IMG/VR virus record: IMGVR_UViG_3300030107_002736
Span: 1 to 61,568 of that record
Origin: a virus
Taxonomy: Duplodnaviria > Caudoviricetes
Length of the DNA stretch: 61,568 nt
Direction: 5' to 3' (one strand)
A model generated the notes under the pieces. It was not told where the DNA came from and ran no database searches. It saw only the letters and a program-made list of their open reading frames with translations. The translations under genes were made by a program, and so were the position numbers. Each line of letters starts with the position of its first letter. Position 1 is the stretch's first letter. Positions 22,701-58,466 of the stretch are shown piece after piece.

Positions 22701-24518
22701 ATGGAGAATGGCAAGGCAACCTACTACAGGTTTGCCGACCCTCAGTTGGCAATGTCGGTAATGATGCTGGGCTTTAATCCTAAAAAGCAGTTAGCAGATT
22801 TGTTTGGCGGAACCGATAAGGGCAAGGCCCTGTCCAAAATAATGACTGGACCGGCACAGCTCCTAAGAACGAGCGTGACAAAGACCCCAGCGTTCCATCA
22901 AAAAAATATTTTTAGAGATTCTTGGAATGCAAGCACCCTTATCGGTGGTGGCCCCGGACTTCTCCTGGACTCTCTTAAAAACGCAATTGACCCCAGCTCC
23001 CTAAGAAGGGCGCAGGAGAAAGGGCTGTCAGTTGGTATTGATTTTGTTGCCAACCCTGACGAGTACGGGCTGGAGATGCGCAAGCAGCTCGACCGTAGCA
23101 AGATAGACTGGACGAATCCACTGTCACCTGTTGCGGCAATGTGGCACTTCCTTGGCAGGCTTTCAAAGCAGTCAGAGGTTGCGACAAGACTTGCCGTGTA
23201 CGACAGGGTGATGGCGTTAACTGGAGACAGGGCCCTTGCTCAATACTTGGCTATAGAAATTATGAACTATGGTCGAAGGGGCGCGAATCAGGCTTTTAGT
23301 ACATTCTTGTCCACTGTCCCCTTTATGAACGGTAGGCTGCAGGGTCTTGATGTTCTGTACAGGGGGATCAGGTCTGGCGGCAGAAGCGGTCGCGGTGTTT
23401 CGGATATTCCGGGCATATGGGGCTACGGCCTGAGCAAGGACCAGTACAAAGATCTTCCTTTGTGGAAGAGAAATAGATCTCAGTTAGTTGGAAGAGGTAT
23501 GCAACTCACTGCTGCTACAATGCTGTACTATTTAATGATGCACGACGACGAAGAATATCAAGGGCTTCGTGACGAGGAGAAAGCGGACAACTGGCTACTT
23601 CCTTTGTCGGGTCATGCGTGGTTTAAGTTGCCGATTCCTTTTGAGGTCGGCGTACTTTTTAAAGTTATTCCTGAACAGCTAATGATGGCTATTCTCGAAA
23701 AAGAACACACGCTTGGTGACGCAGGAGCGGAAGCCGTTCGGCAGCTTAGAACATCTTTAAGCTTTGGTGCCCCGCAGTTCATTGCTCCCTTGTATAACGC
23801 TGCTCGCAACTACGACACCTACAGAAAGGATGCCATTGTAGATCAGTGGACTGCGTTGCGTGAGCCAAACCAGCAAAGGGAGATGTACACAAGCAATGTG
23901 GCTCGCTCTATAGCAGATACCGTAAACGCGATTCCTGGGATGAGAGAGATAGATTTTCTGTCCTCTCCCATGAAAGTCGAATACTTGATGCGCCAGTATC
24001 TGGGCACTATGGGGATGTACGGAATCACGATAGCTGATAGGGTGGCGCGTCAAGGGTATCTTCCGTTACCCAACTGGTCGGACAAAGAAAACATTGTAGG
24101 CACCAGCCTTGATTTTGATTTTGAATCCGTTCTTGGTGGCCCAGGGGTTGTGAATGTTCCACTCTTAGGGGATCTGTTAACAGACCCACGGGTGGGAGCA
24201 GGTAGACAACAAGACTTTTACGAGGTCTTGGGGGAGCTTGACGAAGTTGTAGCTACGCTAAACTCAATTAACGAAACAGACCGCAGGGAAGGGTTTGCTT
24301 ACGCACAAAAACACAGGGCGATGCTGGCACAGAAAAACAGGCTCAGCCACCTGCGGAATCAAATGCGAGCGTGGAGAATCCGCAGGGAGGCGCTACAAAA
24401 AAGAGGTGGCAGCATGACCATCGACGAAAAGCGAGCACAGTACTTACGCATGCTTGAAACACGAGAAGGCATATTAACTGGCGTTAGAGATATTATGGCC
24501 AAAGTAAGGGGCGCATAA
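13758..24518 (+). CDS. Giant polyvalent virion protein (ASCH-like domain, two HExxH motifs, C-terminal LPD38-like domain)
   Basis: 3586 aa. HEKAH at 19674-19688 and HEAIH at 20688-20702. LIRQGLRTSTSR...VRVT ASCH-like segment at about 17690-18000. NYGRRG...VPFMNGRLQG...KLPIPFEVG resembles LPD38. Confidence 0.75.
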   Translation: MPQWKKLPDGSWDFVPDNISIYNQLSQPYSSYDWSQFSAQSSPFQARERQQDGSLFGSAIEGLKSIPAGFVDVPARILQSGIGAVTPFADLPIEKRLREAARRRQQEGFVFRRDPTYLDAFLPDVGAGLGQVGALSLLGRLATRMGPYGLIAGGVALGISEQINRMADQEQKSGKDIPWYTETPAHLIGGLIGLSEMVTPLRLLKGFPGAAKSPFFKRMIRQSRPATAVFSAAGMRSALGSTGAEALQEGFAQGLQSATARGLYDPDALKDVAHSMMEEAKVGGVVGGIADVLATSMRGYNIRGMGYDTEDHFQEEVSLQRADARRRKSKEAEDFFKELDSSLVRRDIDPILKEYGISEGLAEDIHTLFHGAHADMPLHLEHSLASGELDVETMAVLRNRFSANAERAAAQLEKLSNKSKSPLQRRQLYRGAKAIREILGKRLSALDKRIELAGYGIVKLGGLTDSTQYQAIRSDANIPEVVDSSWDTIVGIGHQRDAAIKAGQPMPEYKTILEDYMGGSAGRIGLFRMAEVLGVHGGPGSDAIDVDRVESNGHIPDKTLSSSEAANFSLGDVGRVLFGRKGDRGVIAGLQYTDDLGLSAELETINERIKTLEGELDKAYTEHPRFREVAEAKKGEVYESDDAWTLDKNKNIENWLLKSSQISSLIAGENFKRNELYSRMVLQRLLHAKRVFDTPGTDPQTYRQNKKLKLEAANDLELTTSKDPNEQEAALDAWLQQSIEDAQNTYDRSVERQARLDARKAEIEKKIASTEDESLLVELRQQQVHDVDAHKMFTRDTSAAQLARLATFFNKDVRARRDAIDQRLMMRAYADISGWASRNDHRLTVAESGQTTSRELKKFIEDVLPTRLKRHETIQENLTRTYEKLRGSAKKSPTFESLVRAQFGDGRDSVRKYEEAYGLVTADDVETLLKSKNIFLRGGVPGKDKDKAVKGNIGKTLERRLGTGVESRPFKSLLQNLTGAKSWATASPGQRLLMYSRLLQLPAHRMTLDPRGKVDSEGGGFMPLFLPTFEHNPKADEYLESIMDVLIRPYAFKDERAIPGEQRRTVQNIRNVIEQQRTQAGQEFDGIEFDEALATLIESGVLDHGESSDADLIEEGAILRPSEGSLAPTREGQLGSPSNPKTAETVPELEDVLTFTEAGEGGLKTKVDFNYRGHPLSAITLGHKTIITVDNEYSSDIQFGDILELDDPTGLEDEIRRIGDEYEKGLITDQMMDFFLSKAGHRILVRAGGQGTPLAWRFNYATLSDIATQLSNYRDGISNPKVRTANAAKVARIDGATEPVEFDKARVVPMRYRDGDQGLAMRPGLEGATTLDLIRQGLRTSTSRQKRFPITVGQIIKVQGKDRSDYDFVRVTSGWKSLDEVDQATWTEMEGWGAEAYEKLRKKGYSYFTYERVDPSEIASKSRDAEKAAIATAVVGEVNDQLDPLGNSKLSRYMEALKPSFTAFHFGTRLFKNEADLPDPSDLVTDGMQLIRLEKPFTSEDVIWVSTDIGVTASTVSDLSNVVPVERVLRAVVDGELQGVYKAVDLAIEARASIVMDKKDEVAPDDVAQKELIAYLEDKGYVRMPEDSSVAAPIADEGGDASDYRIRAWAQRKKDRSIAKRFNPESSNSGVWVYNGAVDWAQQNNSSARPYAQLVKDGAVTIPVKPFESFDIPDWTEYAAFLEDIRTEYAKSGVLPYLTEAGFGELDAKQKIRNQLIRNPSLLTPASSVVHDYYSDKTTSGLTIIGELLSKRRSKEDRLDFLRQVLPVINQVERESRTLGPTIEEWKDILSTVGLKHVPYSEFMPDVDVDDISDDDLKKYEEESRQILGDNTRLDGIEFSKEDLVWQRRYQLLHDLVAPEAKAFFVVGSAPDADYLGFSSNFGSDAQVERDDEQYTFINRAKMLQSFELSGEKAVPVWKVQGGIVTKDQVVRGGDTDSTFYANVRKFTPDGVPGLGPDGFERIEDSLVMLIAHEKAHSFITAQLVGTERGQFDKGQGDISSAIYEDVINNYALNELPRLAWAALRSRMETRRLDKLRAAPKSFKADTVSPNLNIIEGARRMPLGGDFVSDVIERQAELEDQSPRSDYHKHVRENKKIFEAKASAVRVKEILNDPKMKKHVDDAVRRWNKQNEKKITRKEYIERYASQITSTLGLQALEDAGVLESVSGRLRRAENIPATESVLRFNTSEGSKILSELIVGDAVPTSIEARASAVRRAHLEESQKRFGHLKTEALITLAKLRVPDNIKTQFVDDIDGLFQGNSEVMVRGEMLPQTRAAVYDSAANRIIINLAAIDPDNMMDAEMVIREAVTHEAIHALKARGHFYESELSHLRAYVRNNVVPEEWDKEAHDMGLTWFEREVYRQKESNLGELEVEEESILALMQALSQDGVPEAREGGSGAKLRKTKNRMMEFFDAVVGAAKETDIGGVMKIFSAVESGAVGMRGAGYRGETDFDAEKDEIRSMRLSRYADPAELQELTKAIALRDAAPNESMRSKEQEKVDKIADRIVGRRSRIQESANPVDGVQAIDNERRAVEEVRATNSYAIPLLGNKMWTAKDNRQARDAALDEYFRIKKGESGYTMPRDWMNMFDNQTRNTTTLEDLVKEAIENGLVTPTAKGGSFKKSLEEGVLGPDSISGNNPEETLENIKTSRDQLRYQFLDRRQWVVKQTDRLLELQNRASIDAETAALVAIRNADNAVNWLEGIMERGPMSYLGQSTSRGSWDIAPVYDDQLQEKYGGDGQVGSLLDIFAFIANPKDEQAAAVYGMAKRIRWTRLRRDETRAQVYPDPMRPNIERDLQSPELASQLRMFDEAYERINPKNKKTGERMWSEAFLDKVIEDTEANNEHIIEFWDHYQAFNRAMIETSYRAGLLTRSQRDEWIAMPYTPFYRDTSKEDQSPIGSSGEMVKRGKVMVERAIRGSFEPIKSDLVSNIMENTQALIRDMTMNVATARTARDAVSLGDAEQVSVSDMRSALDDRIVRVMENGKATYYRFADPQLAMSVMMLGFNPKKQLADLFGGTDKGKALSKIMTGPAQLLRTSVTKTPAFHQKNIFRDSWNASTLIGGGPGLLLDSLKNAIDPSSLRRAQEKGLSVGIDFVANPDEYGLEMRKQLDRSKIDWTNPLSPVAAMWHFLGRLSKQSEVATRLAVYDRVMALTGDRALAQYLAIEIMNYGRRGANQAFSTFLSTVPFMNGRLQGLDVLYRGIRSGGRSGRGVSDIPGIWGYGLSKDQYKDLPLWKRNRSQLVGRGMQLTAATMLYYLMMHDDEEYQGLRDEEKADNWLLPLSGHAWFKLPIPFEVGVLFKVIPEQLMMAILEKEHTLGDAGAEAVRQLRTSLSFGAPQFIAPLYNAARNYDTYRKDAIVDQWTALREPNQQREMYTSNVARSIADTVNAIPGMREIDFLSSPMKVEYLMRQYLGTMGMYGITIADRVARQGYLPLPNWSDKENIVGTSLDFDFESVLGGPGVVNVPLLGDLLTDPRVGAGRQQDFYEVLGELDEVVATLNSINETDRREGFAYAQKHRAMLAQKNRLSHLRNQMRAWRIRREALQKRGGSMTIDEKRAQYLRMLETREGILTGVRDIMAKVRGA

Positions 24519-45522: not shown

Positions 45523-45551
45523 TTGACCTAACATATCCCTAATGATAGGAT
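45523..45551 (+). promoter_or_regulatory. Putative terS promoter
   Basis: TTGACC-17 nt-TAGGAT with an extended -10 TG; ATG 45557 is 5 nt downstream. Confidence 0.55.
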
Positions 45552-45556
45552 GCTAT

Positions 45557-45997
45557 ATGCCTAACCCACCCACGATTACGCCTAAGCAGTCTGCTTTCGC
45601 AGGCTTCGTAGCTAAGGGACACTCCTATGCGGAGGCCTATCGCAAGGCGTATGATGCGAGCAAGATGAGCAAGCAGGTAGTGTGGAACAACAGCTCCAAG
45701 CTCGCCAAGAATCCACGGGTAAAGGAAGCTATCGAAGGACTGAAGGCTGACACCCAGGTGGTGAAGCAAACCCACGAGAAGCTAAACAACGACTGGATTA
45801 TCCAGAAGCTCAGGGCTGAGGCAGTAGACGACACCAACTCCCCGTCCAACAGGATACGGGCACTTGAACTACTGGGTAAAGCAGGAGGACTATTCGAGGA
45901 GTCCACCCACGTCACGTTTGAGAACAGGTCATCCGATGACCTAGAGAAAGAGCTGATGGACAAGCTCGCCATGTGGTCGTCAGCTAGTAAAGCGTAG
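45557..45997 (+). CDS. terS: Terminase small subunit
   Basis: TPKQSAFA...AEAYRKAY...SSKLAKNPRVKEAI...RIRALELLGK..GLF, typical of TerS. Confidence 0.85.
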   Translation: MPNPPTITPKQSAFAGFVAKGHSYAEAYRKAYDASKMSKQVVWNNSSKLAKNPRVKEAIEGLKADTQVVKQTHEKLNNDWIIQKLRAEAVDDTNSPSNRIRALELLGKAGGLFEESTHVTFENRSSDDLEKELMDKLAMWSSASKA

Positions 45998-46244
45998 GGT
46001 TAGGAACACCCCCCAAAAACTAGCTTTAGGTTGGTGAGATAGAATCTCCTCACACAATCCTAACCTAACGACCTGTACCTCGGTGCTGACAGGGTGCACA
46101 TGGTGACCTATGGGGTGAAAATTTCACCCTAAAAGTGACTTGCCGACCCGTACCTCGGTGCGGGCGGAGGTTGCGGTCTCCCGCGAAGGTTGGAGGGGCC
46201 CCGACGAAGAGGTAGAGATGCGACGAAGGTTGCGGGGACCCACT

Positions 46245-46300
46245 AAAAAAAGTCTGAACACAGACCTAGATTCGCTTGCGAATCCAGGTCGCATGTTCAG
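46245..46300 (-). terminator. Second intrinsic terminator of the orphan gene
   Basis: Long - strand hairpin (GACCTGGATTCG/CGAATCTAGGTC, G-U on the - strand) followed by T7. Confidence 0.6.
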
Positions 46301-46321
46301 TCCTTTAATTTGGGCCTCGAC

Positions 46322-46360
46322 AAAAAAAAGCGGGAGCCGGGTTGTTAGCCCGACCCCCGC
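46322..46360 (-). terminator. Intrinsic terminator of the orphan gene
   Basis: GCGGGGGTCGGG / CCCGGCTCCCGC followed by T8, about 21 nt after the stop codon. Confidence 0.85.
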
Positions 46361-46381
46361 AGTTAGAGTTAACAGGTCACC

Positions 46382-47368
46382 TTAGGCCCAAGGATCCTCT
46401 TTAGTGGGCTGGATGCGAAGCACCTCCGGCGTAGCTAGATCCTCCAAGCAACGCATATCGGATTCGATCTTAGACTTCGCCCGTGCCATCCCACGATGCT
46501 TCGCCTCCAGCTGGTCGTAGAGGGCGTTAAGCTTCATGGTTCCCGCGATGACAATCGACATCGTGTAGTTATGAGGCTTCTGGCCCCACACGATGTCAGT
46601 CACGCGCTCGCCGTCCTCGGTGTCCCGCATGGTGTACTCGGAACGAGGGTTACGAAGCACCCAGAGGGTGTCGGGATCTCCCACTGGATGACCGTAAAGC
46701 ACCAGCTGAGTGTCATCGGCGATGAACTCACGATGAACCTGGAAAGCCATACGGGAGATCTCCACCCACTTAGCTGGCTTACCCATAACGGCACCGCTCA
46801 AGACGGCGAGCATTTCACGCGCATGACCCTCAGAGAGCAGAGAAGCGCAAATGTTCTGGATATCCCTACGCTTCCCTGTCCAGGGACGGTGGGCAGTCTT
46901 GCCCCAATCTGTCCGCGAGCCCGCAGGCTGTGTCGGGACAGGAGTTTCCTGTTGGTCGGCAACGGGAAGCGCGTTCCACTCAGTCATAGCCCGAACATAT
47001 TCGGCTTGAGCGGAGTCGTAAGCCCGCCAGCCGACGCGCTTGGAGGCGTGGAGCATGCCGTTATAAACATCATTGAACAACTGTATGACTGCCGCACGAG
47101 GCATAGACGCCTTAAGCTTTCCAGCCTTCGTGAAGTGGTCGGACAGGAAGTCGGTCAGGCGTCCCAGTATGAGTTGCATCTGCTGGTGGGCCTTCGTCGT
47201 AGCTTTGGCCGTCTCTTTGGCCTTAGGACCGACTTGTGCAATGATGTTGGCCACGTCGGCGACATACTCACTGAGGGCTTTGAAACCCTCGTGGCAGACG
47301 CGAGTGACTGTACCGCGAAGCTTCTCGGCCTTAGCGAGAGCCTGCGGGGACTGTGTTACCTCATCCAT
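46382..47368 (-). CDS. Orphan 328-aa protein, stand-alone transcription unit
   Basis: Likely start ATG 47368 (GAGGT RBS), its own terminators, no recognisable motif. Confidence 0.75.
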   Translation of the reverse strand: MDEVTQSPQALAKAEKLRGTVTRVCHEGFKALSEYVADVANIIAQVGPKAKETAKATTKAHQQMQLILGRLTDFLSDHFTKAGKLKASMPRAAVIQLFNDVYNGMLHASKRVGWRAYDSAQAEYVRAMTEWNALPVADQQETPVPTQPAGSRTDWGKTAHRPWTGKRRDIQNICASLLSEGHAREMLAVLSGAVMGKPAKWVEISRMAFQVHREFIADDTQLVLYGHPVGDPDTLWVLRNPRSEYTMRDTEDGERVTDIVWGQKPHNYTMSIVIAGTMKLNALYDQLEAKHRGMARAKSKIESDMRCLEDLATPEVLRIQPTKEDPWA

Positions 47369-47411
47369 GTTAACTACCTCGTAGTTATGGATCTGTGTGC
47401 CGTAAAGCGAA

Positions 47412-47957
47412 TCTCTACAGCTGACGCAATACCACGGGGTGCGCTCGACTGGGGATGTCAAGGGCAAGAGATTCCAGTGTCGCATACTTGCGACCGAATC
47501 TCTTGGGCCGAAGGCCTAGCACCCTTGATATTCCTCGTTTTCGGCAGTTATAAACAAAGGCTTCGCGTAAGCGCGAAGTCCTCATTGCACTTAGAACTTA
47601 GAACAATGGTTTGTTCTAGGTTCTTATGTGCAATACGAAAACCGTGCACCGTGATATTGGAAAGCTGTAGAGAGCATTGGTAGCTTTCTTTAGAGTGCAG
47701 ACCTTGAACGCGAAGCCAAGGTCGGCAGAGTCAGTTGACTATCCTTCTAGGTTTGGTCCTACAGTGTCTAGTCCCTAGTAGATTGAAGTTAACTTAGGTA
47801 TCTAGACTGTCAGGACCAAACCAATAAACAAAAGTTAGTTGACTGACGCCTCTCTAAAGAAAGCCTTGCCGGTACAAAGAAAAGGGTAGATCGACGCTTG
47901 TTACTACATGGCCGAACTTTTCTTTGCTGAGTTTTTAGCCTCGGGGTAAAAACTCAG
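47412..47957 (+). ncRNA. Large multi-domain structured element (ncRNA or folded ssDNA)
   Basis: At least 12 nested helices of 7-22 bp, with non-Watson-Crick pairs mostly G-T on the + strand. Confidence 0.6.
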
Positions 47958-48038
47958 GGGTTGGGTGGACAGATGGGGAAGGGAAGTGCTGGGTGGGGCT
48001 GTGTGCTGTTGCTACTGTGATTGTGGTTAGGCTGTTCA

Positions 48039-48102
48039 GTAAACAGATGGACGACCCCTAGTGGGGGGGAACCCCCCTCTTTGGGGTTGGCCGTCTGTTT
48101 AC
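48039..48102 (+). other. Long GC-rich hairpin with GAA triloop (pac/ori candidate)
   Basis: GTAAACAGATGG/CCGTCTGTTTAC, CGACCCC/GGGGTTG and GGGGGG-GAA-CCCCCC. Confidence 0.55.
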
Positions 48103-48178
48103 ATATAAACAGTGTTTTGCACATCCTACCACCAATTTTTGATAATGTCACGGCCCCGTCTAGTCTTTGTCACATGGC

Positions 48179-48270
48179 CTAGTATTATCTATATAGATTT
48201 ACTAGGTTCTTTTAGATAGGTAATTACTATAGATATTATTTATAGTACTATACTATAGATACTATATAGA
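48179..48270. repeat. AT-rich patch with TACTATAGATA / CTATATAG repeats (origin-like)
   Basis: TACTATAGATA at 48225 and 48251; much lower GC than the flanks. Confidence 0.55.
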
Positions 48271-48278
48271 GGGGCCCC

Positions 48279-48401
48279 GTGAAGATAAAAGTTTTTGGTG
48301 CAATACTGGTTTTACTAACCCTTTTTTCGTGCGCTACGAACACGGGCACCTGTTGGGAGGGCCTTGATCGGATTGACCCGGAGTGCCCATATGAGTCATG
48401 A
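48279..48401 (+). CDS. Small 40-aa lipoprotein (not in the ORF track)
   Basis: MKIKVFGAILVLLTLFSC-ATNTGTCWEGLDRIDPECPYES; GAGGGG RBS, GTG start, LFSC lipobox. Confidence 0.6.
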   Translation: MKIKVFGAILVLLTLFSCATNTGTCWEGLDRIDPECPYES

Positions 48402-48810
48402 GGAGGATAAGGGTCCTGCGCCTATCACAATGGACGACCTGGCGTATATCTTACCCAGGGCGGTAGAAGCGTATCGGGCTGCTGCGATTCGTGACAGGCC
48501 TAAACAAGTGGGGTATATTGCGATGAACATGACCCCTGAAGAAGTGGTGGAAAGATTTCCTGATTTCTTTTGCTTATATTCCGAGGGTAAGCTACAATTC
48601 ATCGGTGAAACAGCAGAGGAAATCCTAGAGACCTACCTGACTGGGCTAGGTTATAAACGATGCAGCCAACAATGGTTTGAGCTTGCGCATGTGGTCGTGA
48701 ACATGGCCGCCGAAGAAGGGAGAGATATTGAGTCAATCGTCAAAGAAGTCCGACCAACCAGAACAAACAAAAACAGAGCGCGAAACAGCAAGCCACCTAA
48801 GGTACCTTGA
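48391..48810 (+). CDS. Hypothetical protein
   Basis: Likely start MSHEEDKG at 48391. Confidence 0.55.
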   Translation: MSHEEDKGPAPITMDDLAYILPRAVEAYRAAAIRDRPKQVGYIAMNMTPEEVVERFPDFFCLYSEGKLQFIGETAEEILETYLTGLGYKRCSQQWFELAHVVVNMAAEEGRDIESIVKEVRPTRTNKNRARNSKPPKVP

Positions 48811-48961
48811 TCGCCTCAAGCACTCTGAAAAGCTTCGCCTGTATGCCCAACTCCTGCTCTCATCACAAAGGGCACAAATAAAAAACTATCATGCGAAGTC
48901 AGAAGCCCTCAGAAAAGATGCCGAGGAAATACTTTTGTACTTTCAAAAGCATGTAGACTGA
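48728..48961 (+). CDS. Hypothetical protein
   Basis: Its stop overlaps the terL ATG. Confidence 0.45.
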   Translation: MSQSSKKSDQPEQTKTERETASHLRYLDRLKHSEKLRLYAQLLLSSQRAQIKNYHAKSEALRKDAEEILLYFQKHVD

Positions 48962-50454
48962 TGACCCTGGATATGGCCGCTATTGCGGCAACCATTCGTT
49001 CGCTTCCACCAGACCAACAAAGGGAAGCAATCGAAGTCATTGAGTTGATTAACGAGGTTAAACGTAGAGAGGCATCGGAGAAGGACTTTCTTTCGTTTGT
49101 AAAAGAAGTTTGGCCTGCCTTTATTGAGGGCGAGCATCACAAGATTATGTCCGATGCGTTTAATCGGATTGCTGATGGGACCCTGAAACGGCTTATTGTT
49201 AATATGCCGCCACGACATACTAAGTCAGAGTTTGCGTCTCATCTTTTTCCCGCCTGGTATCTGGGAAGGTTTCCAGATAAAAAAGTCATCCAGACAGCAC
49301 ACACCGCAGAGCTTGCTGTTGGGTTCGGTCGTAAGGTTCGTAACTTGGTAGGTTCAGAAGTCTATCAAAAAATATTTCACGACGTTTCGCTTAGCTCAGA
49401 CTCCAAGGCTGCGGGACGTTGGAGCACCAACAGAAAAGGTGAGTACTTCGCTATTGGTGTTGGCGGTGCTGTTACAGGTAAGGGTGCCGACATTTTAATC
49501 GTAGATGATCCTCACTCAGAGCAGGAAGCTGCACTTAACGACCCTTCCGTGTACGACAAGACGTATGAGTGGTACACCTCTGGTCCTCGTCAGAGATTAC
49601 AGCCTGGTGGGGCGATTTGTCTGGTAATGACTCGCTGGTCCAAGAAAGACCTGACGGGAAGCATTATTAAAGCATCAATTGAGCGTGGTGGCGCAGACGA
49701 GTGGGAGGTTATTGAGTTTCCTGCCATACTTCCGAGCGGAAGACCGTTGTGGCCTGGGTTCTGGCCAATTGATCAGCTTGAGGCTTTGAAAGCAGAACTG
49801 CCGGTTAGCAAGTGGAGCGCCCAGTACCAGCAGGACCCCACGTCAGAACAGGCAGCTATCATCAAGCGTGAGTGGTGGAACGAGTGGACAAAGAAAAGTC
49901 CGCCACCGTGCGACTTCGTTATTCAGTCCTGGGACACGGCATTCCTTGCAAAGGAAACAGCAGACTACAGTGCCTGTACAACATGGGGTGTGTTCAACGA
50001 CGAAGACGGTGTATCAAACATTATTTTGCTTGATGCTCTTCAGGAACGCCTGGAGTTCCCAGACTTAAAGCAACGTGCCTATGAGATGTATAAGCAATAC
50101 GAACCAGACGCCTTTATCGTGGAAGCAAAAGCTGCTGGGACTCCACTGATTTTTGAATTGAGGAGGATGGGTATTCCGGTGGGAGAATACACACCCAGTC
50201 GAGGCAAAGATAAAATTGCTCGCGTAAATGCAATTTCCGATCTATTTTCCTCCGGTCACGTCTGGGCACCAAAAACAAGGTGGGCAGAGCTGGTTATGGA
50301 AGAGTTTGCTGCTTTTCCCACCGGCGACCACGACGACCTTGTGGACTCATCTACACAGGCACTGATGAGATTTCGTCAGGGTGGCTTTATCAGGATAGCA
50401 AGTGATGAAGAAGATGAAGAGTTGTTACCAATGAGAAAAGCTGATTATTACTGA
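48961..50454 (+). CDS. terL: Terminase large subunit
   Basis: NMPPRHTKS (Walker A), LIVDDPH (Walker B), MTRW, SWDTA and HDDLVDS nuclease motifs. Confidence 0.95.
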   Translation: MTLDMAAIAATIRSLPPDQQREAIEVIELINEVKRREASEKDFLSFVKEVWPAFIEGEHHKIMSDAFNRIADGTLKRLIVNMPPRHTKSEFASHLFPAWYLGRFPDKKVIQTAHTAELAVGFGRKVRNLVGSEVYQKIFHDVSLSSDSKAAGRWSTNRKGEYFAIGVGGAVTGKGADILIVDDPHSEQEAALNDPSVYDKTYEWYTSGPRQRLQPGGAICLVMTRWSKKDLTGSIIKASIERGGADEWEVIEFPAILPSGRPLWPGFWPIDQLEALKAELPVSKWSAQYQQDPTSEQAAIIKREWWNEWTKKSPPPCDFVIQSWDTAFLAKETADYSACTTWGVFNDEDGVSNIILLDALQERLEFPDLKQRAYEMYKQYEPDAFIVEAKAAGTPLIFELRRMGIPVGEYTPSRGKDKIARVNAISDLFSSGHVWAPKTRWAELVMEEFAAFPTGDHDDLVDSSTQALMRFRQGGFIRIASDEEDEELLPMRKADYY

Positions 50455-51374: not shown

Positions 51375-51406
51375 GTATATTGGCTTATCGCGCAGAGGAA
51401 TGTTTT

Positions 51407-53878
51407 GTGGCAATAGACAAGTCTATCGAACCTCTTTTCAACCAAGATGATTTTGAGATGGGTCCCGAGGGGCTCACTGTGGTTGAAGAAATGGGTGCAC
51501 CCGACGACTCACTCGTTACCGAAATGGATGACGGTAGCGTTGTAGTTGACTTTGACCCTCTGGCAGATTTGCTGGAAAACCAGGACGAGTTTTCGTCAAA
51601 CCTTGCTGAATTTGTTGAGGAGGGTGAACTCAACACATTGGCGTCTGATCTTGTTTCAAAGTTTGAATCTGACAAGAGTAGCCGGGGCGACTGGGAAGAC
51701 ACATACGAGCAAGGCTTAGACCAATTAGGTCTTGAAATTGAAGAGCGTACACAGCCATGGGCTGGAGCCTGCGGGGTCTTTCACCCCATGCTGTCTGAAG
51801 CCGTAGTTCGATTCCAAAGTCAAACTATTCAGGAAATCATGCCTGCGCAGGGTCCCGTTAAGACTCATGTGTGGGGCAAGTTCACCCCTGAGAGACAGGC
51901 ACAGGCAAAGCGTGTTCAAGAGTACATGAACTATCAGCTTATTGAGGTTATGACTGAGTACAGGTCAGAGACCGAAAAGCTGTTGTTTAGCTTGCCGCTT
52001 GCAGGTAGCGCGTTTCGCAAGATCTACTTTGACCCATCGCTTGGCAGGCCAACGTCAATGTTTGTGCCTGCAGAAGATTTTGTAGTAGCGTACAATGAGT
52101 CGGAGCTAGAGCAGGCAGAGCGTTATACCCATGTAATGAATCGAAGCACCAACCAGATTAAGAAGTTGCAGGTTAGTGGTTTTTACAGAGATGTAGAACT
52201 CACGCCCTCCAACATCGAAGAAAACGCAATTACAGACAAACTCAATGAAATTGGAGGCGTAAGGCCGTCCTACGAGACGGATGAACGGCACCAGCTTCTT
52301 GAGATGCACGTTGATGTTGACCTGCCCGGATACGAAGATCCTGACGGCGTTGCGCTGCCCTATGTAATTACAATCGACAAGGGCAGCAACACGATTCTTT
52401 CGATCTACCGAAACTGGTCAGAGGACGATCCACACAGGATTAAAAAACAACACTTTGTCCACTACGGGTATGTTCCTGGCATTGGGTTCTACAACCTTGG
52501 CCTGATTCATATGATTGGTGGACTAGCCAAGTCCGCGACCAGCCTGCTTAGACAGCTGGTGGACGCGGGCACACTATCCAATTTGCCCGGAGGATTAAAG
52601 ACTCGTGGACTCAGAATTAAAGGTGACGACACCCCCATTATGCCAGGGGAGTTTAGGGATGTTGATGTGCCTGGCGGGGCTATTCGTGACAACATCACCT
52701 TCCTTCCTTATAAGGAACCTTCTTCGGTCCTTTACCAGTTACTGGGCAACATTGTAGAAGAAGGCCGTCGATTTGCTTCGATGGCTGACATGAAGATTGC
52801 TGACATGAATCAAGAGGCTCCGGTCGGCACAACGCTTGCGATCATGGAACGTGCCATGAAAGTGCAAAGCGCGATTCAGGCACGGATACACGCCAGCCTT
52901 AAGCAAGAGTACAAGATTCTTGCAGAAATTATTAGCGATTATACAGATCCGGCATATCCCTACGAGACCGACGAAGGTGAGGCGATTAAGGCCGAGGATT
53001 TTGATGATCGCATTGATGTGATTCCTGTGTCAGATCCAAACGCCTCCTCAATGGCGCAAAGGATTATGCAATACCAAGCAGCCCTGCAATTAGCTGCGCA
53101 GGCACCGGGCCTGTACGATATGCCATTGCTTCATAGGCAGATGATGGAGCTGATCGGTATTCCTAATGCTGACAAGGTTGTTCCAAATCAAGAGGAAGTG
53201 GAGCCGAAAGATCCGCTTACCGAAAACCAGAACATGCTTACCATGGCCCCGGTTAAAGCGTTTGAGTGGCAAGATCACGACGCGCATATGCGGGTGCACA
53301 TGGCACTTAAAAATGATCCGCAACTTGCCCAGGAAGTACAAAACAGTCCTGCGGGTGGGGGAATCAGTGGCGCACTAGATGCACACATCAGAGAACACTT
53401 AGCGTTTATTTTCCGCAAGCAAATAGAGGAAGAGCTTGGTATTCAGTTGCCGCCTGCAAGCGAAAGACTTCCAGAAAGACTAGAGGCAAAACTCAGCAGA
53501 CTTGTTGCGGATGCCTCAGACCAAATGATGGGCAAGAAGCAAGCCCAGCAGCAGGCAGAAATAAACGCACAACAGCAACAAGATCCAATTATACAAATGC
53601 GCGAACGCGAAGTTGCGACCCGCGAACAGGAAGTTCAGCGCAAGCAGGCCGCAGATATGGCCAAGCAGCAGCTTGATCAGCAGAAATTGCAGCTTGAACG
53701 TGAGAAAATTGCCAGCAAGGAGCGGATTGACATGGCAGAACTGACCTTAGAGGAGCAAGCACTGATACTCAAGGCTGAAATTGAGTCCGAAAAGAACGAT
53801 GCGGACATCCAGTTAAAGGGTTTTCAGCTTGGGCAGCAGCTTGGTAAAGATATAGAGGGTGGAAACGATGGCAGATGA
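51407..53878 (+). CDS. Portal protein (P22-like, long C-terminal coiled coil)
   Basis: Follows terL; PWAGACGVFHPMLSEAVVRFQ and GSAFRKIYFD; Q-rich barrel-like tail; GTG 51407 with a GAGGA RBS. Confidence 0.9.
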   Translation: MAIDKSIEPLFNQDDFEMGPEGLTVVEEMGAPDDSLVTEMDDGSVVVDFDPLADLLENQDEFSSNLAEFVEEGELNTLASDLVSKFESDKSSRGDWEDTYEQGLDQLGLEIEERTQPWAGACGVFHPMLSEAVVRFQSQTIQEIMPAQGPVKTHVWGKFTPERQAQAKRVQEYMNYQLIEVMTEYRSETEKLLFSLPLAGSAFRKIYFDPSLGRPTSMFVPAEDFVVAYNESELEQAERYTHVMNRSTNQIKKLQVSGFYRDVELTPSNIEENAITDKLNEIGGVRPSYETDERHQLLEMHVDVDLPGYEDPDGVALPYVITIDKGSNTILSIYRNWSEDDPHRIKKQHFVHYGYVPGIGFYNLGLIHMIGGLAKSATSLLRQLVDAGTLSNLPGGLKTRGLRIKGDDTPIMPGEFRDVDVPGGAIRDNITFLPYKEPSSVLYQLLGNIVEEGRRFASMADMKIADMNQEAPVGTTLAIMERAMKVQSAIQARIHASLKQEYKILAEIISDYTDPAYPYETDEGEAIKAEDFDDRIDVIPVSDPNASSMAQRIMQYQAALQLAAQAPGLYDMPLLHRQMMELIGIPNADKVVPNQEEVEPKDPLTENQNMLTMAPVKAFEWQDHDAHMRVHMALKNDPQLAQEVQNSPAGGGISGALDAHIREHLAFIFRKQIEEELGIQLPPASERLPERLEAKLSRLVADASDQMMGKKQAQQQAEINAQQQQDPIIQMREREVATREQEVQRKQAADMAKQQLDQQKLQLEREKIASKERIDMAELTLEEQALILKAEIESEKNDADIQLKGFQLGQQLGKDIEGGNDGR

Positions 53879-56844: not shown

Positions 56845-57780
56845 ATGGCTATTTCACGCGCACAACTTCTAAAGGAACTCCTCCCTGGACTTAACGCTCT
56901 CTTTGGAATGGAGTATGCACGTTATGATGACGAGCACTCCGAGATATATGAGACGGAAAGCTCAGATCGTTCCTTTGAAGAAGAAGTGAAGCTTTCGGGC
57001 TTCGACGCAGCCCCCGTCAAAGACGAGGGATCTGCGATTTCCTACGATGCTGCACAGGAGAGCTTTACGGCTCGTTACAACCATGAGACTATCGCCATGG
57101 GCTTCGCCATTACGGAAGAAGCCATGGAAGACAATCTCTATGACTCCCTGTCGGCTCGTTACACTAAGGCCCTGGCTCGTGCCATGGCTCACACCAAGCA
57201 GGTCAAGGCTGTTGTTCCTCTGAACAACGGGTTTACCAACGCTTACCAGAGCGGCGATGGTGTTAACCTTTTCACAGCGTCTGGTGACGGTGTAACTGGT
57301 GGTGACGGTCACCCACTCGTTTCGGGTGGTAAGAACTCAAACCGTCCAGCTACAGCTGTTGACCTCAACGAGACCTCTCTTGAGGCTGCTGTGATTCAGA
57401 TTGGCAAGTGGACGGACGAGCGTGGTCTAATGATCGCTGCACGGCCCCAGACGCTTGTGATCCCGCCCGACTTGCAGTTTGTCGCGGCACGGGTAATGCA
57501 GTCTGAGCTTCGCCCCGGAACTGCCGACAACGACATCAACGCTGTGCGTTCGATGGGTGTTGTTCCTGGCGGAACTGTTGTGAACCACTATCTCACAGAT
57601 ACGGACGCATGGTTCCTGCTGACGGATGTTCCGAACGGCATGAAGCACTTCAATCGTGTTGCACTTGAGACGAGCATGGACGGTGACTTTGACACCGGAA
57701 ACGTTCGCTACAAGGCTCGCGAGCGGTACAGCTTTGGAGTTTCCGATCCCCTAGGGATCTGGGGATCACCCGGAGCGTAA
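56845..57780 (+). CDS. Major capsid protein (HK97 fold, Mu gpT-like)
   Basis: MAISRAQLLKELLPGLNALFG..., PQTLVIPPDL, YLTDTDAWFL and RERYSFG; AGGAG RBS and a downstream terminator. Confidence 0.9.
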   Translation: MAISRAQLLKELLPGLNALFGMEYARYDDEHSEIYETESSDRSFEEEVKLSGFDAAPVKDEGSAISYDAAQESFTARYNHETIAMGFAITEEAMEDNLYDSLSARYTKALARAMAHTKQVKAVVPLNNGFTNAYQSGDGVNLFTASGDGVTGGDGHPLVSGGKNSNRPATAVDLNETSLEAAVIQIGKWTDERGLMIAARPQTLVIPPDLQFVAARVMQSELRPGTADNDINAVRSMGVVPGGTVVNHYLTDTDAWFLLTDVPNGMKHFNRVALETSMDGDFDTGNVRYKARERYSFGVSDPLGIWGSPGA

Positions 57781-57787
57781 TTTGGTT

Positions 57788-57835
57788 GGGGGTGGGAGCG
57801 CAATGTCGCTTCTGCCCCCTTCCTTGTTTTTTTTT
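57788..57835 (+). terminator. Intrinsic terminator after the capsid gene
   Basis: GGGGGTGGGAGCG / CGCTTCTGCCCCC stem followed by a T-rich tail including T9. Confidence 0.75.
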
Positions 57836-57881
57836 CCTGACTACCGAAAACGGTAGACACTAGCCAAGACAGGAGAATGTA

Positions 57882-58466
57882 ATGGCTGACACTACTTTTA
57901 GTGGTAATGTCCGGGCAGAAGGCGGCCTTGAGCAGGTAACCAAGAACGCCACAACTGGTGCATTTACCACAAACTTTGATGTAGACACTAGTGGTAACGT
58001 GTCGGGTACTGGTACGCTAAAGCTGACTGGTGCCACGAACATGGTCGCAGACTATGAGTCGATTACCACAGCAACCAAAACTCTAACAGCAGCCGATTCC
58101 GGCACTGTTTTTGGGTTCAACAAAGCAGACGGTATCGTAGTTACGCTCCCAACCCCAGCGGCTGGAATTATCTACACTTTTCTTGTAGAGACTACGTTTA
58201 CGTCAGCGGGTCAGATTAAGACCGCTACGACTGACGGCACCGATGGCTTCTTGGGAACCGCCTTCCTGTTTGACACAGGAGAGATTGGCGAAACTGACAA
58301 CTTCCACCCCACGTCATCAAACGATGTTATTGATTTGGGTGCTGTTGAGCAGGGCTGGCTTACTGGTGGTTTTATTAGGCTTACAGGCGTTAACACGACG
58401 ACTTGGTTTGTAGAAGCTTTCTTGATGGGTGACGGAACGCTAGCGACTCCGTTTACGGACAGTTAA
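57882..58466 (+). CDS. Virion structural protein (head fibre/spike-like)
   Basis: MADTTFSGNVR..., TLTAADSG...VTLP; T/G-rich. Confidence 0.65.
   Translation: MADTTFSGNVRAEGGLEQVTKNATTGAFTTNFDVDTSGNVSGTGTLKLTGATNMVADYESITTATKTLTAADSGTVFGFNKADGIVVTLPTPAAGIIYTFLVETTFTSAGQIKTATTDGTDGFLGTAFLFDTGEIGETDNFHPTSSNDVIDLGAVEQGWLTGGFIRLTGVNTTTWFVEAFLMGDGTLATPFTDS

Follow-up and report, generated by a model that had tools for sequence, protein, structure and literature searches.

In the phage genome studied here, a stretch of about 550 nt lying between the two main gene blocks, which have opposite orientations, folds far beyond chance expectation. We tentatively read it as a structured RNA not described before, fast-evolving and composed of three domains that fold independently. 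It is carried in a hypervariable cassette at the head of the leftward block of an HTVC023P-like marine podophage. The strand that folds in this phage may be the + strand (the terL direction).

Three domains of nested helices fold far beyond chance

The window, i.e., the whole stretch of viral DNA analysed, is 61,568 nt long. The minimum-energy fold of positions 47400-47970, computed as + strand RNA, contains 211 pairs. An earlier note on this DNA had listed three domains and their helices by reading the letters, and each listed helix is present in this fold:

47412..47673, + strand: domain 1, a multi-branch fold inside an 11-bp closing helix
47412-22/47663-73: closing helix of domain 1, 11 bp, zero G-U pairs
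47451-64/47522-35: stem of the first arm of domain 1, 14 bp, three G-U pairs
47465-74/47496-505: inner helix of domain 1, 10 bp
47506-16: GGCC-GAA-GGCC hairpin of domain 1
47537-43/47636-42: stem of the second arm of domain 1, 7 bp
47558-82: hairpin of domain 1, 3+7 bp
47584-47634: hairpin of domain 1, 7+14 bp
47676..47873, + strand: domain 2, a closing helix of 7+13 bp around two hairpins
47683-95/47852-64: closing helix of domain 2, 13-bp part
47676-82/47867-73: closing helix of domain 2, outer extension, 7 bp, three G-U pairs
47700-47723: short hairpin of domain 2
47730-47847: long interrupted hairpin of domain 2
47875..47957, + strand: domain 3, a pair of hairpins side by side
47875-84/47917-26: stem 1 of domain 3, 10 bp, with a branched tip
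47927-37/47947-57: stem 2 of domain 3, 11 bp

In domain 1, the 14-bp arm bears a 10+6 bp hairpin plus the GGCC-GAA-GGCC hairpin, and the 7-bp arm bears a 10-bp hairpin and a 21-bp hairpin. The helices are nested within multi-branch domains and are not simple palindromes.

Folded as + strand RNA, 47400-47970 reached -246.8 kcal/mol versus -167.5 +/- 6.4 for dinucleotide shuffles, which served as the null (z -12.4; 0 of 100 shuffles as good). As - strand RNA it reached -229.9 kcal/mol versus -150.6 +/- 7.2 (z -11.0), and DNA parameters gave z -13.9 (+) and -12.6 (-). The comparison proposed in the earlier note, both strands folded with RNA and DNA parameters against dinucleotide shuffles, returned z beyond -10 in all cases. 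Domain 1 alone, as RNA, scored -131.5 kcal/mol (z -12.9) on + and -118.5 kcal/mol (z -10.7) on -. When 240-nt windows were slid along the whole 61.6-kb record, those from 47401 and 47641 took rank 1 on both strands, and the 560-nt folded stretch holds 3 of the record's 10 inverted-repeat pairs of at least 13 nt within 400 nt.

The folded stretch belongs to a hypervariable cassette

The stretch had been placed between terS (45542-45997) and terL (48961-50454), which is literally so, although a 328-aa minus-strand gene and a promoter region share that interval. To call it encoded in the packaging module is misleading, because the element is part of a hypervariable cassette in a divergent control region. 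This exchangeable cassette (46024-48054) consists of the folded stretch and the fast-evolving 328-aa gene, sits ahead of the conserved sigma-70-like promoter of the terL operon and differs between phages with 99% identical terL; homology to one related locus (L001) picks up again at 48055. The features of the region, in a linear record without end repeats, are:

46330..46360, - strand: intrinsic-terminator-like hairpin and T-run, predicted to end the transcript of the 328-aa gene
46382..47368, - strand: gene for the 328-aa protein (P0001), first gene of the leftward block
47578-47561, - strand: terminator-like hairpin and T-run inside domain 1
47958..48036, + strand: G-rich tract (C-rich on -), seen by eye
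48039..48102: inverted repeat of 31 nt, imperfect (77% complementary), with G7/C6 at its core
48118..48146, + strand: sigma-70-like promoter toward the terL operon, TGCACA-17-GATAAT in the scan (by eye, the -35 is TTGCAC)
48123..48151, - strand: candidate sigma-70-like promoter (GTGACA-17-TAGGAT, TG preceding the -10) directed at the 328-aa gene and the element
48183..48271: AT-rich stretch (GC 0.33) separating the promoter from the first + gene; CTATAGAT-type motifs recur in it as direct and inverted copies

Of the 12 pairs in the hairpin at 46330..46360, 10 are G-C, and TTTTTTTT comes after it. In 47800-48099 GC skew lies between +0.23 and +0.33, and, by eye, the related loci L003, L004, L005 and L007 have similar G-runs at the position of the G-rich tract. 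The inverted repeat at 48039..48102 marks the start of a block conserved among relatives, and the block 48040-48143 also occurs on other, deeper contigs with different flanks. The 23-nt block around the + promoter is unique in the record and conserved in L001, L003, L004, L005, L006, L007 and L008. The leftward site (48151-48123) is a consensus match only, in a region with 3 such sites versus 1.9 expected; it is the sole consensus promoter facing the 328-aa gene, and it lies beyond the folded element. From the element to the start codon of that gene, no promoter-like site was listed by the scan, which also gave no consensus + promoter before the element and no + terminator after it.

What is the 328-aa protein? 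It had no Pfam or PHROG match, a word-seeded search returned the protein itself only, HMMER found only 7 representatives among 1.84 billion proteins, and no hit of a PDB profile search fell below E 0.05. Syntenic homologues are 23-26% identical while their terL proteins are 87-99% identical, and the family alignment contains no conserved stretch. The AlphaFold model (pLDDT 87.9) retrieved nothing at E<=0.001 from PDB or BFVD with Foldseek. A designed helical protein, the best VIA-align match (Z 7.8), was within the noise of helical models, and hhalign against HTVC027P gp33 and a 344-aa protein of L005 gave a probability of 0.1-0.2. A + ORF at 46496-47683 (395 aa, overlapping domain 1) appears by composition, as judged by eye, to be an antisense shadow of the 328-aa gene and not a hidden gene.

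Relatives of the folded element were largely absent from the sequence sets searched. A blastn search of 50,697 phage records gave no match; in 80 terL-anchored IMG/VR loci the conserved promoter block alone matched; the 30-nt core pattern of domain 1 was absent from IMG/VR; and a covariance model of domain 2 found no relative in 50 terL-anchored loci nor in a further locus (L083). Related phages invariably have a folded stretch at this single position, unrelated in sequence but equally folded. The terL of the window is 54-58% identical to that of cultured members of its phage group. In the cultured Pelagibacter phage HTVC027P, the analogous spacer, which separates the first leftward gene from the rightward block toward terL, is over-folded (z -4.4 and -3.7) and contains a full-length match to Flavobacterium-1 RNA (RF02976) on the leftward strand, at 90.2 bits versus a gathering score of 58.9.

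Wobble pairs lean to the + strand

In the folded stretch, 15 G-U pairs form on + (10 helix-internal) versus 9 on - (3 helix-internal); the internal pairs divide as 4 v 1 in domain 1, 5 v 1 in domain 2 and 0 v 1 in domain 3. A count by hand in the earlier note had given about nine versus one. Over the whole 571 nt, + folds 17 kcal/mol better, the same as the difference between the shuffles, and composition therefore fully accounts for the energy gap between the strands of the whole stretch. In domain 1, + is better by 13.0 kcal/mol, of which 4.6 is compositional and about 8.4 remains, and domain 3 has similar energies on both strands (-27.0 v -27.2). The claim of strand-specific folding on + is confirmed in part only: the internal wobble pairs and about 8 kcal/mol of domain 1 speak for it, the whole-stretch energy does not. 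The asymmetry toward + is modest.

The same measure was applied to the analogues. In the HTVC027P spacer, internal G-U pairs number 4 (+) v 12 (-), in agreement with the strand of the curated family. The L005 and L007 analogues favour + strongly (internal G-U 11 v 4, z -12.5 v -11.0; and 20 v 5, z -13.2 v -8.5), and that of L004 is also asymmetric toward +. The analogues of L001 (7 v 10) and L003 (3 v 6) lean to -.

Natural variants maintain base pairs

The folded stretch is contained in 20 runs from 14 studies, all of them DNA runs kept as contigs; variants were taken from contigs only, in four runs, and few haplotypes exist. A 96%-identical metagenome copy (L082), the sole copy from one metagenome scan, differs from the window at 22 positions by substitution. 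Two compensatory double changes were found: (i) at 47602/47615, at the tip of the 21-bp hairpin of domain 1, A-T became G-C, a haplotype present in all three runs covering both positions; and (ii) at 47705/47718, in domain 2, T-A became C-G and 9 nt of the loop were lost, both in L082 and in one run (X5). In 200,000 simulated trials of 22 random substitutions, at least two compensatory doubles arose in 0.9%.

One-sided changes between the window and L082 are roughly even between the strands. Pairing on + is preserved by three (47428, 47598 and 47856), of which 47428 and 47856 become A.C on -; the change at 47598, T.G to C-G in the tip of the 21-bp hairpin, was counted as mismatch repair on either strand. 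Three more changes, at 47659, 47899 and 47901, would form G.U wobbles on - but not on +; the latter two (T>C, domain 3) disrupt a 3-bp tip helix on +. Population variants concentrate at the tip of the 21-bp hairpin of domain 1. On one contig of another run (X9), 47677-47873, i.e., domain 2, is swapped for 318 other letters with the flanks intact.

Base pairs are maintained by compensatory change, a generic mark of structured RNA, here seen in few haplotypes. Compensatory changes and changes clustered at hairpin tips could also come from DNA-level template switching in quasi-palindromes. Between L005 and L007, RNAalifold counted 22 two-sided changes on + and one-sided changes of 20 v 6, counts that partly arise by construction; an unbiased pair-retention test of the same two kept 44 of 89 changed pairs versus a null of 36.2 +/- 4.3, a weak excess (z about 1-2).

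Alternative readings of the folded stretch

Could the RNA be made from the - strand? A minus-strand RNA, either a structured 5' leader of about 750 nt or a separate ncRNA upstream of the 328-aa gene, is a possibility that we consider doubtful, though a serious one. The transcript would begin at the conserved block's leftward promoter and cross first the C-rich tract and then all three domains, with control by attenuation, processing or stability. The earlier note had denied that the stretch is the 5' UTR of the adjacent gene. That denial is too firm, since the sole gene-facing consensus promoter is beyond the element, with none listed between element and start codon, and since the small RNA motif of the HTVC027P spacer is on the leftward strand. 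Also in keeping with a leader are the - strand terminator-like hairpin and T-run in domain 1, a similar - strand hairpin in L003 (4841-4817) directly before the start of the homologous gene, the joint swapping of gene and element as one cassette, the three changes that are wobble-compatible on - only, and the lean to - in L001 and L003. The adjoining leftward genes of HTVC027P, gp33 and gp34, are expressed as a separate early-to-middle cluster (PMC12753301). However, the internal wobble pairs favour + in the window (10 v 3), L004, L005 and L007, two variants become A.C on -, a bidirectional terminator-like hairpin in L007 separates the conserved promoter block from the folded element, and the leftward promoter is a weak consensus match whose spacing, by eye, is not kept in L003.

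Alternatively, the DNA itself could act in the divergent control region, which we think unlikely. It might serve as (i) a transcript-primed origin, with a folded region, a G-rich R-loop-prone tract and an AT-rich unwinding stretch, as in ColE1 or T7/T4; (ii) cruciform-forming repeats that absorb supercoiling between divergent promoters; or (iii) an injection or packaging signal, comparable to the repeat-rich T5 injection stop region. In favour, DNA parameters give folds just as extreme, with little difference between the strands, and long perfect helices are numerous. The element also occupies the space between the two large gene blocks of opposite orientation, and template switching can probably yield compensatory and tip-clustered changes without selection on an RNA. 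Against this, neither extruded cruciforms nor protein binding sites would usually show nested multi-branch pairing over 180-260 nt, the unequal wobble counts of the two strands in the window, L005 and L007 point to a single functional strand, and the repeat scan listed no iterons inside the element.

For an origin, the phage encodes a T7 gp4-like primase/helicase (phrog_239, E 3e-77), and the expected order on +, a G-rich tract and then AT-rich repeats, is present, with no consensus + promoter upstream. The ColE1 RNA II/RNA I system has a multi-stem-loop RNA of about 550 nt upstream of a G-rich segment, with variable loops that set specificity and an antisense partner. The G-rich and AT-rich stretches after the folded element resemble this arrangement, but ColE1 is a plasmid system and the element lacks a consensus upstream + promoter. 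The T5 injection stop region is described, in bioRxiv 10.1101/866236, as a large untranslated region by the early genes, full of repeats, inverted repeats and palindromes and defined by a conserved 8-DnaA-box array in the long terminal repeat. A region of this type was rejected here: DnaA boxes (TTWTNCACA) are neither enriched nor clustered (4 in the record versus 4.95 expected, the only one nearby at 48115), and no terminal repeat is known for this phage.

Finally, it is very improbable that the three domains are nested or tandem MITE-like mobile palindromic insertions with terminal inverted repeats and no phage function. In favour of this, every domain is closed by an inverted repeat of 11-20 bp, one run shows all of domain 2 exchanged from the base of its closing helix, and the cassette differs despite 99% identical terL. 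Against it, the closing repeats have no second copy in the record (domain 1 has one unrelated 1-mismatch site, domain 2 none), neither 185,579 species genomes nor IMG/VR contain the domain 2 repeat pair at a spacing of 140-170 nt, the searches with the domain 1 core and the domain 2 model found no relatives in the sets given above, and a folded stretch is always present in relatives at this single position. No further copies were found by these exact-match tests, which could miss diverged ones.

The folded stretch matches no Rfam family

At gathering score, Rfam 15 matched the whole window with Mu-gpT-DE alone (57835-57884). At E<=10, 45900-48400 gave five weak chance-level rows, none inside 47400-47970. 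The earlier note could match the stretch to no family, in agreement with Rfam at both thresholds. Flavobacterium-1 RNA gave no row at E<=10 in the region of the window and no match in the loci of 18 other relatives scanned. This motif, a candidate sRNA, reportedly comes from Weinberg et al. 2017. It resembles the folded element in filling the analogous divergent spacer in HTVC027P, but it is 121 nt long versus about 550 nt and lies on the leftward strand, whereas the wobble pairs of the window favour the rightward one. The main text of PMC5737381, as searched here, does not mention it.

A retron ncRNA (msr-msd), which would lie directly upstream of a reverse transcriptase gene, was rejected because neither the neighbouring 328-aa protein nor its 8 aligned relatives significantly match a reverse transcriptase or any other Pfam family, and the structure model of the protein has no convincing fold match. 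Hairpin promoters for an N4-like virion RNA polymerase are unsupported, since the 3586-aa protein has an LPD38 polyvalent-protein domain only and no PHROG match. The pRNA of phi29 keeps its secondary structure while its sequence diverges almost completely between relatives; it is about 120-174 nt long and serves phages whose packaged DNA is protein-capped and which have no small terminase. The idea of a packaging-module RNA points to this phage RNA, whose structure is likewise kept despite diverging sequence, but the present phage has both terS and terL. GOLLD and ROOL are Rfam models of conserved sequence and structure, typically near tRNA genes. They are similar to the element in being large (>500 nt), multi-domain, of unknown function and sometimes phage-borne (see also the ROOL/GOLLD passage of PMC5737381). 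However, neither model matches the folded element, the window has no tRNA genes, and the element consists of long near-perfect helices without sequence conservation between relatives.

Possible role and significance

What might the folded stretch do? If it is a + strand structured RNA, it would run antisense to the 5' region of the transcript of the 328-aa gene and end ahead of the conserved terL-operon promoter. Our best guess is a strain-specific regulator in the form of a stable RNA that would act as antisense or decoy, with specificity set by its variable hairpin tips. Such an RNA might titrate a host factor, or else time or restrain the expression of the fast-evolving early gene next to it. 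The short list of the earlier note, a large undescribed phage ncRNA or a folded ssDNA element, is still right. In a more speculative version, to which we give a low chance, the stretch would represent a new class of hypervariable modular RNA or ssDNA with swappable self-folding domains, located at a fixed place beside the first leftward gene of the abundant HTVC023P-like marine podophages. Its exchangeable hairpin tips would be determinants of strain specificity, for example in replication priming and incompatibility of co-infecting phages or as decoys against host nucleic-acid-sensing defence, and the element and the fast-evolving 328-aa protein would co-evolve as a ribonucleoprotein pair.

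Infection RNA-seq exists for the cultured relative HTVC027P, whose same spacer holds an Rfam motif, and the question is therefore directly testable. Extreme folding that persists over 400-600 nt while close strains swap the sequence makes this kind of stretch a strong candidate for an RNA not yet catalogued. Because the element always adjoins a hypervariable first gene, it may play a role in phage-host or phage-phage conflict.

Results

The folded stretch lies in the main divergent spacer

The window is an entire IMG/VR virus record, linear, of 61,568 bp and without end repeats (CheckV completeness 100%), and its large terminase is 54–58% identical to TerL of phage 023Pt_psg01, phage DSL-LC04 and Pelagibacter phages HTVC027P and HTVC023P. 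The earlier note had placed the folded element (47412–47957; folded here as 47400–47970) between terS and terL. Because rightward genes begin at about 48.3 kb and leftward ones at 47368, with terS standing isolated, the element lies inside the main divergent spacer rather than in a simple terS–terL gap:

47368 down to about 34.8 kb, minus: leftward gene block
45542–45997, plus: terS, an isolated rightward gene
46360–46330, minus: predicted terminator-like hairpin of the P0001 gene
46382–47368, minus: gene for P0001 (328 aa)
47369–48278: main divergent spacer, holding the element
right of the element: G-rich tract, then an imperfect inverted repeat with G7/C6, then a block conserved across relatives
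48118–48146, plus: predicted sigma-70-like promoter facing terL, in the conserved block
48151–48123, minus: predicted weaker sigma-70-like promoter facing left, in the same block
right of the promoter block: AT-rich stretch with CTATAGAT-type repeats
from about 48.3 kb, plus: rightward block with terL, portal and a Mu-gpT-like head protein
48961–50454, plus: terL
51380–53878, plus: portal

The first rightward ORF (48279–48401, plus; GTG start, 40 aa) opens with residues that, judged by eye, resemble a lipoprotein signal peptide with a terminal cysteine, and it overlaps, in another frame, a 148-aa ORF without family match (48364–48810, plus). An Rfam Mu-gpT-DE RNA (57835–57884, plus; 52.7 bits, gathering score 49) lies downstream of the Mu-gpT-like head gene (56845–57780) and directly upstream of an ORF starting at 57882. 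A 3586-aa protein (13758–24518, plus) has LPD38, a large polyvalent protein associated domain, as its single Pfam match (E 1.7e-28, residues 3264–3441) and no PHROG match.

The element is the most strongly folded part of the record

Every helix listed in the earlier note was present, where it had been read, in the plus-strand minimum-energy fold, which comprises three independently folding domains (47412–47673, 47676–47873 and 47875–47957). The fold exceeded dinucleotide shuffles on both strands with RNA and DNA parameters alike, and none of 100 shuffles matched the RNA plus-strand energy.

Fold energy of 47400–47970 (kcal/mol; element, dinucleotide shuffles, z)
RNA, plus: −246.8; −167.5 ± 6.4; −12.4
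RNA, minus: −229.9; −150.6 ± 7.2; −11.0
DNA, plus: −137.5; −69.7 ± 4.9; −13.9
DNA, minus: −133.1; −64.1 ± 5.5; −12.6

When the whole record was scanned in 240-nt sliding windows with GC correction, those starting at 47401 and 47641 ranked first on both strands. No Rfam family reached its gathering score within the element when the whole window was scanned, and none matched it at E ≤ 10 in a scan of 45900–48400; the window also contains no tRNA.

Which strand folds? The earlier note had named the plus strand. G-U pairs number 15 in the plus fold and 9 in the minus fold; 10 and 3 of these, respectively, are internal to helices (domains 1 to 3: 4 v 1, 5 v 1 and 0 v 1). Over the whole stretch the plus strand is better by 17 kcal/mol, an advantage that is compositional because it equals the gap between the two strands' shuffle sets. 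For domain 1 alone it is better by 13.0 kcal/mol, with a compositional share of 4.6. The internal-wobble measure correctly picked the leftward strand in HTVC027P (4 v 12), where the strand is fixed by a curated Rfam model. Thus, wobble pairs and the domain 1 excess side with the plus strand, the whole-stretch energy does not, and the call is a moderate lean only.

Pairing is maintained in natural variants

A copy 96% identical to the element was present in a single metagenome contig (L082). Across 47400–47970 it has 22 substituted positions and three indels: one nucleotide is deleted at 47445, nine are deleted from a loop, and one is inserted. Nine substitutions are at unpaired positions. At two pairs both partners changed and Watson-Crick pairing was retained (47602/47615, A-T to G-C; 47705/47718, T-A to C-G). 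Three one-sided changes kept the plus pair (47428, 47598, 47856) and five broke it (47595, 47659, 47663, 47899, 47901); three of these five (47659, 47899, 47901) would form wobble pairs on the minus strand. Random placement of 22 substitutions gave at least two compensatory doubles in 0.9% of 200,000 trials. The same hairpin-tip haplotype occurred in contigs from four independent marine DNA runs, the 47602 change in 4/4 and the 47615 change in all three covering that position. In a contig from one marine run (X9), domain 1 is retained, as is the beginning of domain 3, and the 197 nt of domain 2 are replaced by 318 other letters, with junctions at the base of its closing helix. Since paired changes, this domain swap and a concentration of changes in hairpin tips and domain bases all occur, pairing is maintained in natural variants and the domains behave as exchangeable units. 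Template switching in quasi-palindromes at the DNA level could be the source of the paired changes.

The element belongs to a swappable cassette

In L001, the closest relative (terL 99% identical), homology to the window stops at 46023, shortly after terS, and resumes at 48055; in place of the intervening 2.0 kb (46024–48054), L001 has 2.9 kb of unrelated DNA. The window's cassette includes the P0001 gene. P0001 matched nothing in Pfam or PHROG, and a search of 1.84 billion proteins yielded just 7 representatives; its AlphaFold model is confident (pLDDT 87.9) and largely helical with a C-terminal sheet, and gave no convincing match to a known fold. Syntenic homologues in L001, L003/L006 and L004 are only 23–31% identical. 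Gene and folded stretch are thus one conserved but very fast-evolving module.

A 395-aa open frame (46496–47683, plus), antisense to the 328-aa gene and extending into domain 1, looks by its composition like a shadow frame. A second untranslated stretch (46024–46380), between terS and the P0001 gene's 3′ end, holds several hairpins, two with ACCTCGGTGC-type loops, and its 240-nt windows rank among the record's more folded ones; by eye, L003 has similar hairpins with ACCTCA loops. The 15-nt palindrome GGTGAAATTTTCACC (≤2 mismatches) occurs at seven sites against 0.13 expected, all within the leftward block (40878, 43219, 44642, 45044, 45357, 45494, 46114), and L003 carries, by eye, the variant GGGGAAATTTTCCCC at the equivalent place. 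It looks like a candidate operator for a dimeric regulator co-varying between strains.

Unrelated folded stretches precede terL in relatives

Of 80 terL-anchored loci, twenty-five with enough upstream sequence were scanned for folding on the plus strand, and six of them contained, upstream of terL, a 240-nt window with residual z ≤ −3.5, one of them doubtful (L013, GC 0.11).

Full-element z in relatives (plus, minus; 40 shuffles, L001 20)
L001: −4.4, −3.4
L003: −8.8, −9.4
L004: −6.1, −7.8
L004, second stretch: −2.5, −0.8
L005: −12.5, −11.0
L007: −13.2, −8.5

The folded stretches of these five loci showed no sequence likeness to the window's element and no match to a covariance model of its domain 2. 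The L005 element is one giant imperfect hairpin (71% identity to its reverse complement across 456 nt) and is 68% identical to that of L007. RNAalifold on this pair kept 139 plus-strand pairs (20 one-sided, 22 two-sided changes) and 116 minus-strand pairs (6 and 20), counts that arise partly by construction; a structure predicted from one and tested on the other kept 44 of 89 changed pairs against 36.2 ± 4.3 when shuffled. The firmer statement is that both lineages are still extremely folded despite 32% divergence. Strand lean varies among these non-homologous elements, internal G-U pairs favoring plus in the window, L004, L005 and L007 and minus in L001, L003 and HTVC027P.

Hairpins preceded by an A-run and followed by a T-run, resembling bidirectional terminators, occur in the elements of L003 (4932–4949, 5171–5188; two near-copies of one hairpin) and L007 (1926–1943). 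In L028, 78 nt lying about 700 nt before terL (5239–5316, plus) match the Rfam model of tmRNA (60.6 bits, E 6.6e-21) and may represent a tRNA-like fragment.

In the cultured relative HTVC027P (MN698241.1), a 548-nt divergent spacer separates leftward gp34 from rightward gp35 (toward terL) and is also over-folded (z −4.4 and −3.7); gp32–gp34 and the spacer have 46–50% GC within a genome region of 33–37%. An Rfam scan found in it a full-length Flavobacterium-1 RNA (RF02976; locus 3247–3367, minus, about 80 nt upstream of gp34; 90.2 bits, gathering score 58.9, E 6e-18), which has no entry in the feature table of MN698241.1 and was found in this one of 19 loci scanned. By this match, at least one spacer of the class encodes a catalogued candidate sRNA, but its strand is opposite to the one favored by the window's wobble pairs. 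The HTVC027P transcriptome study (PMC12753301) reports gp33 and gp34 as an expression cluster of their own, early to middle in timing, and no phage-encoded RNA polymerase.

Discussion

How does the element act? A single-stranded functional fold is favored by the nested multi-branch pairing, by its upkeep through compensatory change and by the precedent of an Rfam-catalogued RNA in this spacer class, so action at the RNA level, plus- and minus-strand readings taken together, is the most likely reading and probably the right one. Because of the wobble asymmetry, a plus-strand RNA in this phage has a slight edge, as a tentative preference. A minus-strand leader or ncRNA, which would fit the predicted promoter and terminator layout and, by analogy, the leftward RNA of HTVC027P, is possible if somewhat doubtful. 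A DNA-level role, as transcript-primed origin, supercoil-absorbing cruciform array or injection/packaging signal, seems unlikely. Symmetrical DNA folds, perfect helices and the order of a G-rich and then an AT-rich stretch speak for it; DnaA boxes are not enriched and the giant 3586-aa protein offers only its polyvalent-protein domain and no polymerase. A MITE-like origin is very improbable, with no further copy found in the record, 185,579 species genomes or IMG/VR.

The element is real, exceptional in degree and absent from Rfam, and the module to which it belongs is conserved yet hypervariable in a lineage of abundant marine phages. It would belong with the large structured non-coding elements of phages, a known kind, its transcription being putative, and there is a real chance that it represents a new class.
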